DNA from: a virus
Reading direction: 5' to 3' (one strand)
DNA length: 64,000 nucleotides
IMG/VR virus record: IMGVR_UViG_3300010885_049703
Span: 32,001 to 96,000 of that record
The notes under the pieces were generated by a model. The model did no database searches. It was not told the origin of the DNA and saw nothing but the letters and a program-made list of their open reading frames with translations. Positions 34,651 through 43,420 of the stretch are shown here, piece by piece; position 1 is the stretch's first letter, and each line of letters opens with the position of its first letter. A program made the translations under genes and the position numbers.

Positions 34651-35286
34651 TTATTTTTGCATGAGTTGATTGACAAAATCAAGTAAGAGATGATGTTGAC
34701 CGCCGTTCCAGCGACTGCGCATCCAGCTGTAGCAATTGTACCAATGCTGATCGGCTTCGGGATGACATCCTATCAGTCCCACACGATCTTGCATGATGGC
34801 CATGGCGTCACCATTGGCATATCGAGCAACGGTCTCGAAGTTGTTGCCTACAAATGCACAGCCGTCATAAAAGTACATGTTTGTGGGCATGTCTTGCCAA
34901 GTCACTGAGATGTGTTTGGCGTGCGGACGTCGTGTGTCTGTGTTGGGCTGACGAATATACTGCACTGCTCTGACACCATTTAGCAGCCCAAAATAATCTG
35001 TATCAGCCCAGTATGCACCCATGCAAATGCCCAGATATCTACCACCCCCGGCCACAAAGTTGCGTATGCGTTGAGCATGTTGACGCATCAGGAAATCGTA
35101 ACTGTCGCTATCCCCTATACCGCCCGGGAAACAAACCATGTCAACATCGTCAAAAAAGTCATCTTCTAGTTCGTGACGAGTAAACAGTTTGAAGTTATAG
35201 TGTGGCTCAAGAGCTCGTATGACCCCGTTGCCGCTTTGCACTGAACATCGGGGCTGGTGTACAAACAAGGCTATGCGCCTGTGCAT
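34651..35286 (-). CDS. BPL_N / class I glutamine amidotransferase-like protein
   Basis: FPGG, GGRYLGICMGAY nucleophile elbow, HPE. Confidence 0.8.
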   Translation of the reverse strand: MHRRIALFVHQPRCSVQSGNGVIRALEPHYNFKLFTRHELEDDFFDDVDMVCFPGGIGDSDSYDFLMRQHAQRIRNFVAGGGRYLGICMGAYWADTDYFGLLNGVRAVQYIRQPNTDTRRPHAKHISVTWQDMPTNMYFYDGCAFVGNNFETVARYANGDAMAIMQDRVGLIGCHPEADQHWYNCYSWMRSRWNGGQHHLLLDFVNQLMQK

Positions 35287-35435: not shown

Positions 35436-35457
35436 AAAAAGGGCTCCGAAGAGCCCT
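35436..35457 (-). terminator. intrinsic terminator
   Basis: AGGGCTC-TTCG-GAGCCCTTTTT on the minus strand. Confidence 0.8.
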
Positions 35458-35516
35458 GTGTTGCTACTGGTTACGGGTTCCAGTGATCGCCCAATCTTTG
35501 CGCCCGATTTCATGAA

Positions 35517-36932
35517 TTAGAAGCTAATTTGGCCTCTGAGCATAACTGCCTGTTCGCCATCTACACGAGCACCAGATGTACCAACTGGTTTGTTAAACTT
35601 AGTGTCAACGTAGTTTGCCATCAAACGTACATTGTCGTTTAAGAACCAAGTAACACCGTAAGTAATGGAGGTTGCTAGGTTTGCTTTACCTGTTGCAACA
35701 GTGATATCTTCAGCATTGAACTCACTGGCACGTACACCAACTTGCCATGCACCCTTGCCACCACTTGTGTAAGCAGAGTTAGGTTTGATCCAACCAAATA
35801 TACCATCTTTGTAGTTGTGGCTCTCACCCGTGATATTATAGATTGCCTGAACATAGTGACCAGTAATCTCTTTATCTGTACCAGTAGCGGGGTCATAGTT
35901 GAAGTTGAAATGCTCACCTTGCAATTTCAAACCCTTCCAAGCAAATGCTGCTTCAATGCCTTGGCGTGTTCGTGCGGTATCACCACTCAATGCTGATGAT
36001 CCTGTGAACCATGCACTTTGCTGGCGGCCTTCAGTACGACCACTGGCAGGAGCAACTCCAGTTTTGACATTGCCTGTGCTGTATGCTGCACCCAAGTGTG
36101 CCACAAAGTCTTTGTTCTGAATTACTTCTGCAATGTTTGTAGTCACACGTCCAACAACATCTACACCATCAACTGCGGTGCTCTTGTTAGCACGACCACG
36201 GCTTAGTGCCACAGCGTAGGTAAATCCTGTTCTAGGAATACCATGTAACATCACACCAGTTTCTTTGGCAGGAATAAATTCACCTTCAGTCTGACCAATC
36301 AAACTACGTTCCATGAAGTCAATGTTGTTGGAACTGGTCAACTGTTCTAAACTGAAAGGCATCTTAAATGTACCAACTTGTAGTTGTGCCTCTGTGATAG
36401 CAGCATAGTTAAACCAGAATTCATCAATGGTTGATGTGGTTGAACTTGCGCCAGCGTCGTTACCAAAGTTTGCCAAGAGAAGATATTTGAAGTCTTTGGC
36501 AATCTGTCCACGTACACCAAAACGTCCACGACGAACTTCCAATGTGTCTTGATATGGATCGGTTGATTGACCAGAACTAAATGTTTGAGTATAACTTCTG
36601 TAGTCCATGTGAATACGACCAGTAAACTGTGCTGTGGTATTGCCATCTTTGGATTTGATACCAAGACCATTTTCCATCACAGCGCCATCATTCGCTCTGC
36701 TCAAACGATAGTTGTTGCTGTCCTTGACATCTTTGTCAATTCTAGATGATTGGAATTCTTTGTTTTCCAAACGATCCCGGTGTGCTTCAATTTTAGAAGA
36801 GTGTTCTTGCTTAGATAGAATTCCTTTTTGTAAAAGAATATCTAATGTATCAGTGTATTCATCTGCTTGCACAGATCCAGCAAACGACAAGGCAATTGCC
36901 AGCGCCGCTGTTAGCATTTTAAAGTGTTTCAT
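35517..36932 (-). CDS. phosphate-selective porin OprO/OprP family
   Basis: signal peptide; GRIHMDY, RRGRFG, PFSLEQLTSS..FMERS; C-terminal Phe; adjacent to pstS. Confidence 0.85.
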   Translation of the reverse strand: MKHFKMLTAALAIALSFAGSVQADEYTDTLDILLQKGILSKQEHSSKIEAHRDRLENKEFQSSRIDKDVKDSNNYRLSRANDGAVMENGLGIKSKDGNTTAQFTGRIHMDYRSYTQTFSSGQSTDPYQDTLEVRRGRFGVRGQIAKDFKYLLLANFGNDAGASSTTSTIDEFWFNYAAITEAQLQVGTFKMPFSLEQLTSSNNIDFMERSLIGQTEGEFIPAKETGVMLHGIPRTGFTYAVALSRGRANKSTAVDGVDVVGRVTTNIAEVIQNKDFVAHLGAAYSTGNVKTGVAPASGRTEGRQQSAWFTGSSALSGDTARTRQGIEAAFAWKGLKLQGEHFNFNYDPATGTDKEITGHYVQAIYNITGESHNYKDGIFGWIKPNSAYTSGGKGAWQVGVRASEFNAEDITVATGKANLATSITYGVTWFLNDNVRLMANYVDTKFNKPVGTSGARVDGEQAVMLRGQISF

Positions 36933-36996
36933 TGAGGTTTCCTTTCGAATAATCCACCAACACTATACTACATTATGTTGGTGGATGTCAAGTGTA

Positions 36997-38022
36997 TTAC
37001 TTCCAAATTGATTGACCACTGGGGTCTTTCAGATCTTTTTTCCAGTTATCTTGTACTAATTTGATAACAGACTGAGGCATGTGTACATATTCCAATTCTT
37101 CACTCATCTTAGCGCCGTTTTTATAGGACCAGTCAAAGAATTTAAGAATAGCACGACCAGTCAAGCCATCTGCTTGTTGACGGTGCATTATGATAAAACT
37201 AGCACCAGTTGCTGGCCAAGAATCTTTGCCAGTTTGGTTTGTCAGTAACAAATACATTCCTGGAGCGTTGTTCCAATCTGCACCTGCTGCGGCTGCTTTA
37301 AATGTGCTGTCATCTGGTTGTACAAAGTTGCCATCACGATTTTTCAATTGTGCATGAGCAATTTTATTTTTCTTGGCAAATGCATATTCCACATACCCAA
37401 AAGAACCTTTGACACGTTGAATGTTGGCTGCAACACCTTCATTGCCTTTGCCGCCTACACCAACTGGCCACTTTACGGCTGTACCTTCACCAATTGTTTT
37501 AGCAAAATCAGCATTTACTTTGCTTAGATAGTTTGTCCAAATAAATGTTGTACCTGAACCATCTGCACGGTGTACTTCGGTAATATTCATTGCTGGTAGT
37601 GTAACGCCAGGATTCAAATCAGTGATTGCTTTGTCATTCCACTTGGTAATTTTGCCTAGATGAATATTGGCAATTACATCACTGGTCAGTTTTAATTGTC
37701 CCGGTTCTACACCATCAAGATTAACCACTGGAACAACACCACCAATGATTGCAGGGAATTGCATCAAACCTTCTTTTTCCAGTTCTTCTGGTTTCAATGG
37801 CATATCACTGGCGCCAAAGTCTACTGTCTTGGCTTTGATTTGACGTATGCCGCCGCCTGAGCCAATGCTTTGATAATTGAGTCCAATGCCTGTTGCTGCT
37901 TTGTAAGCTTCTGCCCATTTAGAATAAATTGGGTAGGGAAATGTAGCACCGGCACCGGTTAAATCTGCTGCAAACGCCACTCCGGTTAGCGTTAATAATA
38001 CGGCTGCAATGAGTCGTTTCAT
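36997..38022 (-). CDS. pstS: phosphate ABC transporter substrate-binding protein
   Basis: GAGATFPYP, YQSIGSGGG, DFGASD, HRADGSGTT, GKGNEGV. Confidence 0.97.
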   Translation of the reverse strand: MKRLIAAVLLTLTGVAFAADLTGAGATFPYPIYSKWAEAYKAATGIGLNYQSIGSGGGIRQIKAKTVDFGASDMPLKPEELEKEGLMQFPAIIGGVVPVVNLDGVEPGQLKLTSDVIANIHLGKITKWNDKAITDLNPGVTLPAMNITEVHRADGSGTTFIWTNYLSKVNADFAKTIGEGTAVKWPVGVGGKGNEGVAANIQRVKGSFGYVEYAFAKKNKIAHAQLKNRDGNFVQPDDSTFKAAAAGADWNNAPGMYLLLTNQTGKDSWPATGASFIIMHRQQADGLTGRAILKFFDWSYKNGAKMSEELEYVHMPQSVIKLVQDNWKKDLKDPSGQSIWK

Positions 38023-38067
38023 ATGTTGTCCTTAAAAGTTAAGCAGATGATGTTGCTCTGCAGTCAG

Positions 38068-38102
38068 TATTTAAACACATTAATATTACAACAGCATTAC
38101 AA
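38068..38102 (-). promoter_or_regulatory. Pho-box-like promoter of pstS
   Basis: TTGTAAT-GCTG-TTGTAAT (11-bp period), 11 nt, then TAAATA. Confidence 0.7.
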
Positions 38103-38105
38103 AAT

Positions 38106-39110
38106 CTAAATCAATTCCACCAAATTATTACGGAAGATTTCCCAGGCCGATTGCCATGACCAACGATGACTTCCGGCTTCAACTGTGCTGCGATCCAATT
38201 TCAAACACTCGTCTACAGCATGTTTTAAGTCTAGACTGAGATATCCAGTGACTCCAGGATCAACTACGTCCATGGGACCTGCACAGGGATAGGCAGCAAC
38301 AGGAGTACCACAGGCCATGGCTTCAATCATTACAATACCAAATGTTTCCCACTGACTGGGAAACACAAACACATCGGCGTTGGCGTAATAAGTTGCCAGC
38401 CGTTCTCCGGTTTTGAATCCCACAAAATGCACATCAGGGTAACGACGTTCTAGTTCTTCTCGGTATGGACCATCTCCCACCATAATTTTTGTTGCACCCG
38501 GATAATCTAGGCCGCAGAAGTCATCTAAGTTTTTCTCTTGACTGATACGACTCACACACAACAACACCGGACTGGTGCGCGAGCGTGTTCGCGATGATGG
38601 ATTGAATAGTGCTCGATCAACTCCACGGGTCCAAGGAACCAGTTCTCCATCAAACCCACGGCTGCGCAAATCTTTTACCATGGTATCAGTTGTTGTTAGA
38701 ACCTTGCCTGAGTGTTTGTGGAACCAACGCACTAAGGGCCAAGTAAGGGCTTCAGGAATTCCAAATAGTTTTTTGAGTCCTTCAGGGAATTTAGTATGAT
38801 AAGCAGTATTGTAGCGATAACCACGTTTTGAAAGATATTTTCTAGCAGACAGACCAATAGGACCCTCGGTGGCGATATGGATATGATCCGGATTGATCTC
38901 CTCAATCTTCTTGCCCATCGCCCGGGGATAGGCAATCTTGAGTTCGTTGTAGCGAGGACAACTAATGTAGCTGAAGTCCCCGGGAGTAATGTAAACAACG
39001 CGATAACCATCCATAACCGCACACGCTTCAATATTTTTGTATGTTGTAACAACGCCATTGATTTGATCCGGTAAATTATCTGTGATGATCAAGATTGTTT
39101 TTGCTGACAT
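38106..39110 (-). CDS. GT4 glycosyltransferase, Agt-like (diacylglycerol glycosyltransferase)
   Basis: ITD..PDQINGVVTT, IHIATEGPIG, YHTKFPE, ETFGIVMIEAMACGTPV. Confidence 0.8.
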   Translation of the reverse strand: MSAKTILIITDNLPDQINGVVTTYKNIEACAVMDGYRVVYITPGDFSYISCPRYNELKIAYPRAMGKKIEEINPDHIHIATEGPIGLSARKYLSKRGYRYNTAYHTKFPEGLKKLFGIPEALTWPLVRWFHKHSGKVLTTTDTMVKDLRSRGFDGELVPWTRGVDRALFNPSSRTRSRTSPVLLCVSRISQEKNLDDFCGLDYPGATKIMVGDGPYREELERRYPDVHFVGFKTGERLATYYANADVFVFPSQWETFGIVMIEAMACGTPVAAYPCAGPMDVVDPGVTGYLSLDLKHAVDECLKLDRSTVEAGSHRWSWQSAWEIFRNNLVELI

Positions 39111-39265
39111 GAACCCTCCACTCTAAAACTTTTGAATTTAAAATCGTAACGCATGGTTCGTAGAACTCGTTCGCAGGCAGTGCGATCAGTGAACTCCAAC
39201 TCTATCCTTCCGGGTTGATCCGTTGGATCGTTTACGTGTACTGCTATCAATATCATCAACCACAT
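39089..39265 (-). CDS. small hypothetical protein (58 aa, hydrophobic N-terminus, two Cys)
   Basis: read from sequence: MWLMILIAVHVNDPTDQPGRIELEF..C..C; overlaps both neighbours. Confidence 0.5.
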   Translation of the reverse strand: MWLMILIAVHVNDPTDQPGRIELEFTDRTACERVLRTMRYDFKFKSFRVEGSCQQKQS

Positions 39266-40019
39266 CATCTCGCTCCTGTGTCCAAGTTATTATCTCCCAG
39301 CGACCGTTGTGATGTTCAACCAATGCTGTGCATGATTCAACCCAGTCACCGTCGTTCATGTAGACAACACCATCTATTTCTTTGATTTCTGCTTTGTGTA
39401 TGTGTCCACAGATTACACCATCGTAGCCACGCTTCTTGCAGTATGTTGCTAGGTTCTTTTCAAATTGAAAGACAAAATCAATCGCTTTCTTGACTCGACC
39501 TTTAAGATATAAGCTGAGACTCCAATAACCAAAGCCGAGCCGGTGACGAATCCAATTAAAGCGGGAATTAAGTGTGAGTATAAAATCATATGCTTTGTCT
39601 CCTAGTATAGATAGCCATGGTGCCAGTCTAGTGATACCATCAAACAAGTCACCGTGTGTGACTAGATAATGACGACCGTCGGCACCAATGTGTTCGCATT
39701 GATTGACTATTTCAAAGTTGCCAAACCCTATACCATACTGCATGAATGGTCTTAGGAACTCATCATGATTGCCAGCCACGTAAACGACTCGTGTTCCACG
39801 TTTGCTATAACCCAGCACACGGCGCACTACATTGGTATGACTTTGTTTCCACCGCCATTTGTTTTGTTTTATTTTCCAAGCATCAATAATGTCGCCTACA
39901 AGATACAATGTATCGCAGGTGGTGTGTTTGAGAAAATTGTTGAGCTGATCGGCCTTGCAATCTTTGGTGCCAAGGTGAACATCAGAAATGAATACACTGC
40001 GATATGTTTTTGTTGTCAT
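39186..40019 (-). CDS. PlcP-like metallophosphoesterase (phospholipase C; LpxH superfamily)
   Basis: FISDVHLG, LVGDIID, GNHDE, HGDLFD, CGHIH, NDGDWVESCTAL; co-oriented with the Agt-like GT4. Confidence 0.8.
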   Translation of the reverse strand: MTTKTYRSVFISDVHLGTKDCKADQLNNFLKHTTCDTLYLVGDIIDAWKIKQNKWRWKQSHTNVVRRVLGYSKRGTRVVYVAGNHDEFLRPFMQYGIGFGNFEIVNQCEHIGADGRHYLVTHGDLFDGITRLAPWLSILGDKAYDFILTLNSRFNWIRHRLGFGYWSLSLYLKGRVKKAIDFVFQFEKNLATYCKKRGYDGVICGHIHKAEIKEIDGVVYMNDGDWVESCTALVEHHNGRWEIITWTQERDDVVDDIDSSTRKRSNGSTRKDRVGVH

Positions 40020-40040
40020 GGGCTGTTGTGCTTGAACAGA

Positions 40041-40075
40041 TATTTAAGGTCATGTACATTACAGATACGTTACAT
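40041..40075 (-). promoter_or_regulatory. Pho-box-like promoter of the plcP-like operon
   Basis: ATGTAAC-GTAT-CTGTAAT, 11 nt, then TAAATA; same geometry as at pstS. Confidence 0.7.
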
Positions 40076-40078
40076 CAT

Positions 40079-40102
40079 GAAAAAGCCCGCCGAAGCGGGC
40101 TT
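40079..40102 (-). terminator. intrinsic terminator of the tmRNA gene
   Basis: AAGCCCGC-TTCG-GCGGGCTTTTT. Confidence 0.85.
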
Positions 40103-40405
40103 ACTATTTTGGGTTACAAGGCATAGTTGCCCCGGGGATTACGCTGCGAGAGCGAAAACCTCGTCGTTAGCTGCGTTTGCAGTTACTAGTTTGCTTGGAT
40201 TACGTCCATCGCCTGGCGTGTTGCCTTCTTTGCTATCTCACCCTGTCGAAGCCAGGTCTGGCCCATCAGAAACATACTTCGTCCTGCAGTACGGTCCTTT
40301 TCACAAAGAGTCGCACGGTCTGCAAATATGTTTCTGGTGGACCAGGTGGGAGTCGAACCCACGTCCAGAATGCCTTTACTCCAAAGGAATTACAACAATT
40401 CTTAA
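40103..40405 (-). ncRNA. ssrA: tmRNA, circularly permuted (two-piece)
   Basis: acceptor piece with T-arm ending CUGGUCC-ACCA at 40335 lies upstream of the coding piece starting GGGCCAG at 40264 (G3:U70 pair); tag ORF ANAANDEVFALAA* at 40180-40139; outer ends approximate. Confidence 0.92.
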
Positions 40406-40412
40406 TAGTCGC

Positions 40413-40835
40413 TTATTTATTTTGTGGTTGATAATCCACGTTGGGCATACTATACAATAGAAAATTGTGACTGACTGCATCAAATCTAATCTTGAACATG
40501 CAGACTCCCGGCTCGTCAAGGTAACCATAGCTGCGCTTTATGCCTCCACGTTTTAATCTATAAACGCAAAAATGATCAAGGTCTATCAACGGTTCACCGC
40601 CTAACTCAATCAGTTCCACAATCACTGCGCTGTCTGTGTCTGTTCTTTCTATTACTTCTACACCTACACTTGCAATAGTTGTGACATCATGAACAAAGTC
40701 AAATCGTACCAGGGCAGGCTCAACTTGTTGACTAGATACCGGGTCTCCCAATATCTGCCAACGTATGGCATTGCCTTTAGATCTGATGTATAACGAAAGA
40801 TTTCTTTGATTTCTTGGCTTCAATGTATTGTTCAT
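40413..40835 (-). CDS. hypothetical protein
   Basis: ORF downstream of the B12-type radical SAM; start uncertain. Confidence 0.5.
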   Translation of the reverse strand: MNNTLKPRNQRNLSLYIRSKGNAIRWQILGDPVSSQQVEPALVRFDFVHDVTTIASVGVEVIERTDTDSAVIVELIELGGEPLIDLDHFCVYRLKRGGIKRSYGYLDEPGVCMFKIRFDAVSHNFLLYSMPNVDYQPQNK

Positions 40836-42324
40836 AAACTTCTTGTTGTTCGCGCAGCATTCTATCAGCTTCTTGACCATCGCGGTCACCAAATCCTAGT
40901 TCGTGTTGTAATTCTAAAAAGCGCCGATATCGATCAAATCGTCTTTCATAGGTATTGTCTGGATTAGTTGGTGTACTCCAAAAAATATGACTCCATCCCT
41001 TGACCACATTCTCTCTTTCAAAATGATAATGATCACGCAATCTACTATCATTGGTTAGTGGTACTTGATCACCAAGAGTAAATGGCGACGAGATGGCTAC
41101 ACTCAATAATCCATCGTTTGCCCAGTGCCGATAACGACGCAACAAATTCAATGTTTCTTCAAAGTCTTCTTCAGTTTCCATTGGATAGCCGGCCATGAAC
41201 AACCATACTTGTTTTATACCATTGTCATGCAATTGATGCGCAGTATAATCAATGTCAGTATTGCTGAATTTTTTACGCATGTCATACCGTATACGTTCAC
41301 TGCCGCTTTCTACTCCAATTATCCATTCAGAACATCCTGCTCGCCCTGCCAGTTCAAAGTCTCGAGGAGGTTGATTTTCTTTACCTCTAAAAATTGCATA
41401 ACCGCTGTAACGCAATGTACGTGGCAAGTGATCTGCAAGATATTGATTCATTTTACGGTAGTTTGGTATGCTGCCGTTGATCAAGTTACCACTGAATCTA
41501 AAAAAGTCTATGCCTGTCCGATGATAACTTTTGATCATTTCTTCGGCCAACAGTTCACCATCTTTGAAAATATATTTGGGCCAAAGATGTTCTACATCAC
41601 AAAAGGTGCATTTTCTAACACAACCTTTGCTGTCTGTGATCAGCAGATATCGATCACTAGGATTAAATCTTTGATAGATATCAAAGTCGTAGTTGTCCCA
41701 ATCAGGAATAGGCACTGCATTTAAGTCTTGACTGGTTTGTGGTGGCGAGTCAACTATACCATACAGATCTTGTTGTATGACATCAATGATAAATGATTCA
41801 GCGTCACCTGTCACTACACAGTCTATCATGCCATGGTCTACTAGAAACCTAGCTCTTGATCCTGTGGCATGAGTATCTCCAGTGTATTCACCTTGAGTTA
41901 AAATTTCTAGCCCGCGACCTCCGGCTAATATTTTTACTCCAGGAAGCCAGCGTCGAATGCTGTAACACATCAAGGTCAGATATGTTTCACTCATGACACT
42001 AAACACGCTCAATCCAACAATATCAGGATTGTATTTTTGTTTTATACCAATAAGTTTTTGTTTGTTCCATTTGAGAACATCAATCAGCACTCTTCTTGGT
42101 AGTTTACGATCAGGATTTGGGCCTTGACTGATATAAAAAAGCAATTCAGGCCAATAAGGTTTGTCCACAAATTCAGTTACAAATTCTGCAGCAAGATCCA
42201 TGGGTACAGCACTTATGCCGGCTTTGTTTAAACAGGCACTGAGCAAAGCAGGAGCTGTGGCAGGCCAGCCTGGGGTCTGATAGGGTAGACTAACAATGAC
42301 TATGGTGCGTTTATCAGTTGGCAT
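40777..42324 (-). CDS. B12-binding-type (class B) radical SAM protein
   Basis: PALLSACL, VGLSVFS, LAGG, GDAE, SKGCVRKCTFC, GVESGS, GYPMETEEDF. Confidence 0.85.
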   Translation of the reverse strand: MPTDKRTIVIVSLPYQTPGWPATAPALLSACLNKAGISAVPMDLAAEFVTEFVDKPYWPELLFYISQGPNPDRKLPRRVLIDVLKWNKQKLIGIKQKYNPDIVGLSVFSVMSETYLTLMCYSIRRWLPGVKILAGGRGLEILTQGEYTGDTHATGSRARFLVDHGMIDCVVTGDAESFIIDVIQQDLYGIVDSPPQTSQDLNAVPIPDWDNYDFDIYQRFNPSDRYLLITDSKGCVRKCTFCDVEHLWPKYIFKDGELLAEEMIKSYHRTGIDFFRFSGNLINGSIPNYRKMNQYLADHLPRTLRYSGYAIFRGKENQPPRDFELAGRAGCSEWIIGVESGSERIRYDMRKKFSNTDIDYTAHQLHDNGIKQVWLFMAGYPMETEEDFEETLNLLRRYRHWANDGLLSVAISSPFTLGDQVPLTNDSRLRDHYHFERENVVKGWSHIFWSTPTNPDNTYERRFDRYRRFLELQHELGFGDRDGQEADRMLREQQEVYEQYIEAKKSKKSFVIHQI

Positions 42325-42495
42325 TGTGATCTTCTTGTTGGGGTTTAAACAAGTATTCATGCCATAATGCATAAGCAAATACCACCAGGCATCCAGTCAA
42401 CATTGTGCCAAGTAAAAACCCAATAACAAAGTATAACTGTTCGGTGCCCATTAAACTACTTATGGAGCAGGGTACCGTGACCGTTAAACAATTCA

Positions 42496-42569
42496 TGGAG
42501 CGGGGTACGAGAATCGAACTCGTTTAACCAGCTTGGAAGGCTGGGACACAACCAATATGCCAACCCCGC
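42496..42569 (-). tRNA. tRNA-Gly(UCC)
   Basis: cloverleaf, anticodon loop CTTCCAA, encoded CCA. Confidence 0.93.
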
Positions 42570-42577
42570 ATCATCCT

Positions 42578-43420
42578 TTATACGTTTGATGCTGCGACAA
42601 TATGATTATGCATGATTTCTTTTACTTTGTCAAATCTTTGATAACGATTTTGAGCACCCATAACGACCACAGCATACGTGCGACCGTTTTGTTCAACAAC
42701 TACTCCCACACAATATCCAGCTGGATTGGTAAACCCAGTTTTGCTTACCACCACTTCGGGAAAAGCCAACAGCACCATGGTATTGGTATTCGGTACATGG
42801 CTAACGTTGGTGTACGTTTTGTGTTTACGATGCACCACAGTGGTAGTTGCCAAATCTTGATAGGTTGAAATTCTACGTATGATTTGATATCCATATGCTG
42901 CCTCCAACATTCTCCCAACATCTTCGGCAGTACTGACATTGGTTTGAATGCGACCTGACGGATCATCAAAGTGGGTGTTCAACATAGCCAACCGTGATGC
43001 CTTGTGGTTCATGGCATCAAGAAATGCAGTACGACCACCAGGATAATCGTGACTTAAAAATTCTGCCACATTATTGTCACTGCGTATCAACAACCGTTGA
43101 AATAATTGTTCTCTAGTCACTAACCGACCTTGATACTGCACGGTCTGTTGAAGATTGGTGTTGCCGTCAAGGCTTACCATTGCAGTCATTAACTTAGTCA
43201 AACTGGCCATTGGCCTTACCAGTTGAGTTCCATGTCCTACGATAGGTGATTGTGTTTTGATGTCATAGGCCCATACACTGATGGGATTCACTGTGCGAGC
43301 AGAATGATATTTTGCTTTTTTAACTGTTGCGTGATGCGAATGATGATGGTGACGTTTTTTAGCTTCAGCAGTGTTGACTAAACATGATAATGCAATGGCT
43401 ATTAATAATATTTTTTTCAA
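42578..43420 (-). CDS. D-Ala-D-Ala carboxy/endopeptidase (peptidase S11, PBP7-like)
   Basis: signal peptide; ASLTK (SxxK), SDN, KTG. Confidence 0.9.
   Translation of the reverse strand: MKKILLIAIALSCLVNTAEAKKRHHHHSHHATVKKAKYHSARTVNPISVWAYDIKTQSPIVGHGTQLVRPMASLTKLMTAMVSLDGNTNLQQTVQYQGRLVTREQLFQRLLIRSDNNVAEFLSHDYPGGRTAFLDAMNHKASRLAMLNTHFDDPSGRIQTNVSTAEDVGRMLEAAYGYQIIRRISTYQDLATTTVVHRKHKTYTNVSHVPNTNTMVLLAFPEVVVSKTGFTNPAGYCVGVVVEQNGRTYAVVVMGAQNRYQRFDKVKEIMHNHIVAASNV

Follow-up and report, generated by a model that had tools for sequence, protein, structure and literature searches.

The stretch of DNA analysed here (the window) comprises 64,000 nt and corresponds to bases 32001-96000 of the 114,259-bp IMG/VR virus record IMGVR_UViG_3300010885_049703; all coordinates are given in the numbering of the window. 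Five genes lie on its minus strand, contiguous and head to tail, encoding a PlcP-like phosphoesterase, a small open reading frame (ORF) of 59 aa, a GT4 glycosyltransferase resembling Agt, PstS and a porin of the OprO/P family. An earlier inspection of the sequence, here called the original prediction, had described five contiguous, co-oriented genes as a viral phosphate-starvation island. All five were found where it had placed them, the small ORF by its position and the others by profile matches to Pfam and NCBIfam. The island and its control elements comprise the following features, listed from upstream to downstream.

40041-40075, minus strand: Pho-box-like promoter of plcP (ATGTAAC, 4 nt, CTGTAAT, an 11-nt spacer and the -10 element TAAATA)
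39186-40019, minus strand: plcP-like metallophosphoesterase gene, 277 aa (PF00149 at 2.5e-12)
39089-39268, minus strand: small ORF, 59 aa (57-59 aa in its family), conserved and without a family match
38106-39110, minus strand: agt-like GT4 glycosyltransferase gene, 334 aa (PF00534, PF13692 and PF13439; intact E-x7-E motif)
38068-38102, minus strand: second Pho-box-like promoter, before pstS (TTGTAAT, 4 nt, TTGTAAT, an 11-nt spacer and TAAATA)
36997-38022, minus strand: pstS, 341 aa (NF008171 at 431 bits, TIGR00975 at 386 bits)
36962-36991, minus strand: sigma-70-like promoter of the porin gene (TTGACA, 18 nt, TATAGT; 11 of 12 consensus positions), identified as a consensus match only
35517-36932, minus strand: OprO/OprP-family porin gene, 471 aa (PF07396 at 1e-40)
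35462-35518, minus strand: two-hairpin element at the 3' end of the operon (AAATCG, hairpin 1, then CTGGAAYYCGTAACCAG)
35440-35457, minus strand: intrinsic terminator closing the unit

The end of the island as originally drawn, position 40075, coincides with the 5' edge of the Pho-box-like promoter at 40075-40041. plcP overlaps the small ORF by 83 nt and the small ORF overlaps the GT4 gene by 22 nt; because the first three genes overlap, translational coupling is suggested. Contigs from the library of one RNA run (X24) matched the porin gene, pstS (one piece of 203 nt being identical) and the transfer-messenger RNA (tmRNA) gene located upstream. plcP and the GT4 gene were not matched, a gap that is uninformative, and the X24 pieces as contigs from an RNA library do not constitute evidence of transcription by the phage.

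Viral context of the island

Upstream of the window, the record encodes virion-structural and baseplate-hub proteins; downstream of it, a family-B DNA polymerase. Within the window, the phage families phrog_22485, HNH endonuclease, exonuclease and QueE were identified together with six tRNA genes and the one tmRNA gene. Completeness of the 114,259-bp record was estimated as 33% by CheckV, which implies a full genome of about 350 kb. Furthermore, plcP is encoded on at least 595 IMG/VR contigs with 78-97% identity to the esterase of the window, among them records of 345, 356 and 360 kb which are 94-100% complete. The island is covered by metagenome contigs from freshwater and river samples; a blastn comparison of the island with cultured phages gave no match.

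The original prediction had asked for confirmation that the contig is viral, and this is provided by the flanking phage genes, the IMG/VR record and the hundreds of viral contigs with plcP. Host DNA, introduced by an assembly chimera or by cellular sequence miscalled as viral, would be the alternative. It can point to contigs from metagenome-assembled genomes (MAGs) which bear plcP at 66-81% identity, namely L007 and L135 from 'Haliscomenobacter sp. EUL_031' and L008 from a 'Bacteroidia bacterium' of Lake Mendota; L007 and L008 carry a GT4 gene besides plcP. However, these sequences are nested within the viral clade and the other PlcP-like homologues of the same MAGs are only 38-40% identical, hence the contigs are probably phage DNA misplaced into bacterial bins. 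Phage genes on both sides of the island, a GC content without any break across it and the presence of the gene in near-complete viral genomes of 345-360 kb argue in the same direction, and a host origin is hardly credible.

Esterase, glycosyltransferase, PstS and porin

JGI (Joint Genome Institute) and GenBank label the esterase gene LpxH, and the protein could accordingly be an LpxH-type UDP-2,3-diacylglucosamine hydrolase which modifies lipid A or lipopolysaccharide (LPS) together with the GT4. LpxH is also the nearest solved fold: an AlphaFold2 (AF2) model of the esterase shows a helical insert (residues 127-197) in a metallophosphoesterase core, LpxH likewise combines such a core with an inserted helical cap, and the best PDB matches of the model are LpxH structures at E ~1e-10, although with an identity of only 17-22%. 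On the two LpxH equivalog models, however, the esterase reached 48.4 bits (cut-off 134) and 35.4 bits (cut-off 190), and the match was confined to residues 7-125. In each of three gammaproteobacterial genomes, a true LpxH (288-339 bits) is accompanied at a separate locus by a homologue of the phage esterase, which scores 28-60 bits.

A phylogeny of PlcP against LpxH had been named as a check in the original prediction. In a maximum-likelihood tree of 58 rows, a long branch with 99% support sets the five LpxH rows apart from every PlcP-like row; the phage esterases form one clade (99%) within the PlcP-like group, and their closest cellular relatives are alphaproteobacterial with at most 60% identity. 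The tree thus bears out the assignment, together with the scores below both cut-offs and the coexistence of true LpxH and paralogue in three genomes. The gene context differs as well, the phage gene being syntenic with agt and located behind a Pho box. An LpxH function of the phage enzyme is considered very unlikely.

In 23 phage sequences, no variation was seen at any of the metal-binding motifs DxH (13-15), GD (42-43), GNHD (83-86), H122 and GHIH (205-208). A signal peptide is missing and the C-terminal tail from residue 249 is predicted to be disordered. Judged from the model, fold and residues agree with an LpxH paralogue that is directed at lipids. Sebastian et al. (2016; PMC4796936) defined PlcP by a BLASTP E-value below 1e-40 to the characterised protein MED193_17359; as a proxy, alphaproteobacterial homologues adjoining agt were used, against which E-values of 1e-80 to 1e-99 were obtained. 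Sequence comparison supports the view that the esterase is PlcP-like, a predicted phospholipase C, and not LpxH.

The E-x7-E motif of the GT4 is intact (E-TFGIVMI-E). A full-length homologue with 36-44% identity adjoins plcP in 24 of the 36 cellular loci found through plcP. Agt was to be distinguished from other GT4 enzymes according to the original prediction, and here the result was uniform: in all five alphaproteobacterial genomes searched, the best genome-wide match of the phage GT4 was the plcP-linked gene with 252-274 bits; the next GT4 reached at most 125 bits, less than half as much. By sequence, the phage GT4 is an orthologue of the plcP-linked bacterial GT4.

The 'type 2' layout of the bacterial plcP-agt operon was described by Sebastian et al. 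(2016), who also found that the Agt of SAR11 sufficed for the formation of the glycolipids MGDG and GADG in Escherichia coli (PMC4796936); Burkholderia cenocepacia possesses an operon plcP-agt-dagK (PMC13691135). As in these operons, an LpxH-like metallophosphoesterase gene in the phage is followed by a GT4 gene and preceded by a Pho box, and the phage proteins are 50-60% (PlcP) and 36-44% (GT4) identical to the alphaproteobacterial operon members. The phage module differs in that it resides in a jumbo phage, contains a phage-specific ORF of 59 aa between the two genes and has pstS and a porin gene appended. Moreover, no sequence like its Pho box precedes the cellular plcP genes that were sampled, and many relatives have a GT2 for the GT4.

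PstS exceeded the cut-offs of both models, 339 bits for NF008171 and 205 bits for TIGR00975, and an N-terminal signal peptide was identified by eye. The porin matched PF07396 with 140.6 bits (cut-off 20.9) over profile positions 3-348 of 370; it has a signal peptide and a C-terminal Phe. Its nearest clusters in the protein Atlas are OprO/P porins of Pseudomonadota, which gives a hint to the host. The porin promoter TTGACA-18 nt-TATAGT is situated within a 9-bp inverted repeat, CCACCAACA ... TGTTGGTGG, at 36962-36996 (minus strand); this palindrome could be an operator for some regulator.

Conservation and control of the module

Among 80 related phage loci, plcP occurs in 80, the small ORF in 78, GT4 in 33, pstS in 21 and the porin gene in 11. 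plcP and the small ORF thus form the core, and agt, pstS and the porin gene are variable accessories. plcP is shared by all three near-complete relatives, of which one carries the GT4 and the other two a GT2; pstS was found in one of them, at a different site, and the porin gene in none. A scan reaching close relatives only detected the porin gene in 17 viral contigs. In 74 related loci, the gene following plcP and the small ORF was a GT4 in 31, a GT2 of 240 aa (PF00535) in 36 and another gene in seven, so that 67 of the 74 loci have a glycosyltransferase in this slot. Examples of the GT2 are L072:7433-8155 and L100:8910-9632, with 34 further loci; no homologue of it adjoins plcP in the cellular loci that were sampled. 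In three relatives (L056:2212-3063, L082:8568-9389 and L086:8032-8853), plcP and the small ORF are followed by a DNA/RNA non-specific endonuclease (PF01223, 2.4e-41), which may represent another route to phosphorus.

The alignment of the small ORF, a reading frame that runs into plcP on one side and into the GT4 gene on the other, contains 12 invariant columns, two Cys among them, and the AF2 model of the protein shows a beta-beta-alpha-beta fold with a predicted local distance difference test (pLDDT) score of 87. Searches against Pfam and NCBIfam gave no match, a Foldseek comparison of the model with the PDB returned nothing at E <= 0.001, and in the protein Atlas only viral hypothetical clusters were found, with scores of at most 0.88. 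The small ORF was found neither in cellular plcP loci nor in phage Mosig and was seen only in the phage clade of the window. When residues 1-252 of PlcP and the small ORF were modelled as a complex, the score was 0.13, the mark being 0.32. From coupling and co-conservation, one may guess that the small ORF is a partner of PlcP.

Upstream of plcP and pstS, a composite motif was recognised which consists of two 7-nt direct repeats NTGTAAY with a period of 11 nt, a spacer of 9-13 nt and TAAATA. The 114-kb contig contains exactly two copies, which precede the start codon of plcP by 20 nt and that of pstS by 45 nt; 200 shuffles yielded none. The 80 related loci (1.05 Mb) contain 51 copies: 37 before plcP, 12 before pstS (which accounts for 12 of the 21 pstS genes) and two elsewhere. 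The loose pattern CTGTNA-N5-CTGTNA was not enriched in the window, where six occurrences were found and 5.7 were expected; enrichment was confined to the stricter composite motif.

In promoters of the E. coli type, the Pho box stands in place of the -35 element, and the phage motif is laid out likewise. The repeat CTGTCAT of the E. coli Pho box resembles the repeat core of the phage motif (PMC4415409). Because the motif is missing from all 34 plcP loci of cells and cultured phages that were examined, it belongs to the phage clade of the window and presumably to its host; for the same reason, resemblance and placement are what leads us to predict a PhoB site. Its specific location before plcP and pstS fits control by phosphate starvation. 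The phosphate-starvation island proposed originally is in this respect supported for plcP and pstS, both being preceded by Pho-box-type promoters, with the qualification that the porin gene has a sigma-70-like promoter of its own.

The two-hairpin element of about 45 nt is composed of AAATCG, a covarying hairpin of 5 bp and the invariant CTGGAAYYCGTAACCAG. A single copy was counted in G000, as against 40 in the 80 related loci (noted in L045-L120); compensatory changes were seen in five of ten predicted pairs, and a comparison with Rfam gave no match. It marks the 3' end of the operon in the window and is found directly before plcP, replacing the Pho box, in many relatives. The element may be a regulatory RNA or a cassette boundary. 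A tentative and on balance doubtful extension would be that the phage has added two parts to the bacterial system, the coupled protein of 57-59 aa as a partner or regulator of viral PlcP and the covarying element at cassette boundaries, which would serve regulation or recombination and allow genes for phosphate acquisition (GT4 or GT2, pstS, porin, nuclease) to be gained and lost.

Several further elements were noticed around the island. Directly upstream of plcP lies a circularly permuted two-piece tmRNA gene (40048-40497, minus strand; Rfam beta_tmRNA 154 bits, tmRNA_permuted 140 bits) with the tag peptide ANAANDEVFALAA and a terminator at 40083-40102; the match to the permuted betaproteobacterial type is a hint that the host may belong to the betaproteobacteria. 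Among the tRNA genes upstream of the island, the region 40777-43420 (minus strand) encodes a B12-binding radical SAM protein of 533 aa and a protein resembling D-Ala-D-Ala endopeptidases, which scored 148 bits on PRK11669 and did not reach the cut-off of 294. On the other side, at 34651-35286 (minus strand), a protein of 211 aa resembles BPL_N and class-I glutamine amidotransferases; it occurs near plcP in 37 of the 80 related loci in varying orientation. A riverine metagenome contig (run X5) joins 35456 to 40101, i.e. the terminator on the porin side to the tmRNA terminator, and skips the 4.6-kb island. The contig may come from a relative which lacks the island at this position, or the junction may be a false alignment caused by the similarity of the two hairpins.

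Proposed function and known systems

The island is likely to be a phage-borne module for phosphate acquisition which taps membrane phospholipid and is probably switched on by the phosphate-starvation regulator of the host. From the bacterial pathway, we infer the activities of the enzymes and the fate of the phosphorus; the original prediction had likewise inferred that the phage mines host membrane phospholipids for phosphate. PlcP would remove the phosphorylated head group from host phospholipids, leaving diacylglycerol, which the Agt-type GT4 would glycosylate to a phosphorus-free glycolipid so that the membrane stays intact up to lysis. The released head groups would be dephosphorylated by phosphatases of the host, and the phosphate obtained in this way could be used for synthesis of the phage genome of about 350 kb. 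Exported PstS and the OprO/P porin would additionally increase the capture of phosphate in the periplasm and its passage across the outer membrane.

Several observations weigh against this proposal. No phage phosphatase was seen that could release phosphate from the head groups. The orthology of PlcP and Agt is anchored in uncharacterised alphaproteobacterial operons and only indirectly reaches the characterised Agt proteins (Atu2297, PB7211_960). Upstream of plcP, the TGTAAC-type motif was found in none of the 34 loci from cells and cultured phages, the two-hairpin element takes the place of a Pho box before plcP in about half of the related loci, and the promoter of the porin gene lacks a Pho box.

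The same enzymes might instead remodel the host envelope so that changed surface or membrane properties prevent superinfection, modify the display of receptors or prepare lysis, phosphate release being incidental. Such a role would agree with plcP and the small ORF being the core of the clade, as compared with pstS in about one quarter and the porin gene in about one seventh of the related loci. According to two reports, lipid remodelling in bacteria alters phage attachment and susceptibility to grazing (PMC9938194, PMC9457565). However, pstS has the same control motif, which is almost absent elsewhere, and this argues for use specifically under phosphate stress. An envelope function as the main purpose thus appears unlikely, and phosphate acquisition is the preferred interpretation.

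The genes pstS and phoA of phages are a textbook case of viral auxiliary metabolism. In cyanophages, these auxiliary genes are reportedly under the control of host PhoB, an observation attributed to Zeng and Chisholm in 2012. A further article also describes phosphate-stress genes of cyanophages as being under host control (PMC10976474). The module of the window shares with them phage-borne phosphate-stress genes including pstS, and PhoB control, known there, is predicted here; it differs by the addition of membrane-lipid remodelling and of an outer-membrane porin. A Pho box of the proteobacterial type argues against a cyanobacterial host.

PlcP-like homologues were found in the Pelagibacter phage Mosig (MT647606; 48.5% identity) and the Synechococcus phage S-SRM01 (MW015081; 38% identity), both annotated as 'Putative UDP-2,3-diacylglucosamine hydrolase'; the genome papers of these phages do not discuss the gene. 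In Mosig it adjoins pstS, as in the module described here, but in neither phage does agt or a porin gene adjoin it. A small ORF follows plcP in Mosig, too, but tblastn revealed no similarity to that of the window. Phosphate-selective porin genes are also known from freshwater phages of 155-338 kb: amoC-phages carry oprP, which a 2026 preprint treats as a host-like gene and host marker (bioRxiv 10.64898/2026.06.18.733297), whereas the words pstS, LpxH, lipid and glycosyltransferase do not occur in that preprint. A search for amoC in five relatives gave no match, and the control search was likewise empty.

Full-text searches of the literature found no description of a virus-encoded PlcP or Agt. 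The original prediction had known of no virus in which the lipid-remodelling pair plus porin had been characterised; this stands for the phage PlcP-Agt pair and needs to be corrected for the porin, as phage oprP is reported in the preprint. Membrane phospholipid is not known to have been described as a phosphorus store tapped by enzymes of the phage itself. plcP is common, being present on at least 595 IMG/VR contigs, and its KEGG and JGI label is lpxH, a gene of LPS biosynthesis. It is this label that virus surveys list, reporting 'lpxH' as an auxiliary gene for LPS biosynthesis (PMC9611531, PMC10653327). If the 'lpxH' genes of these surveys are PlcP-like, viral gene inventories misstate the functions of these phages. 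For lakes poor in phosphorus, the proposed use of membrane phospholipid would be relevant both to the phosphorus cycle and to the lipids that make up infected cells.

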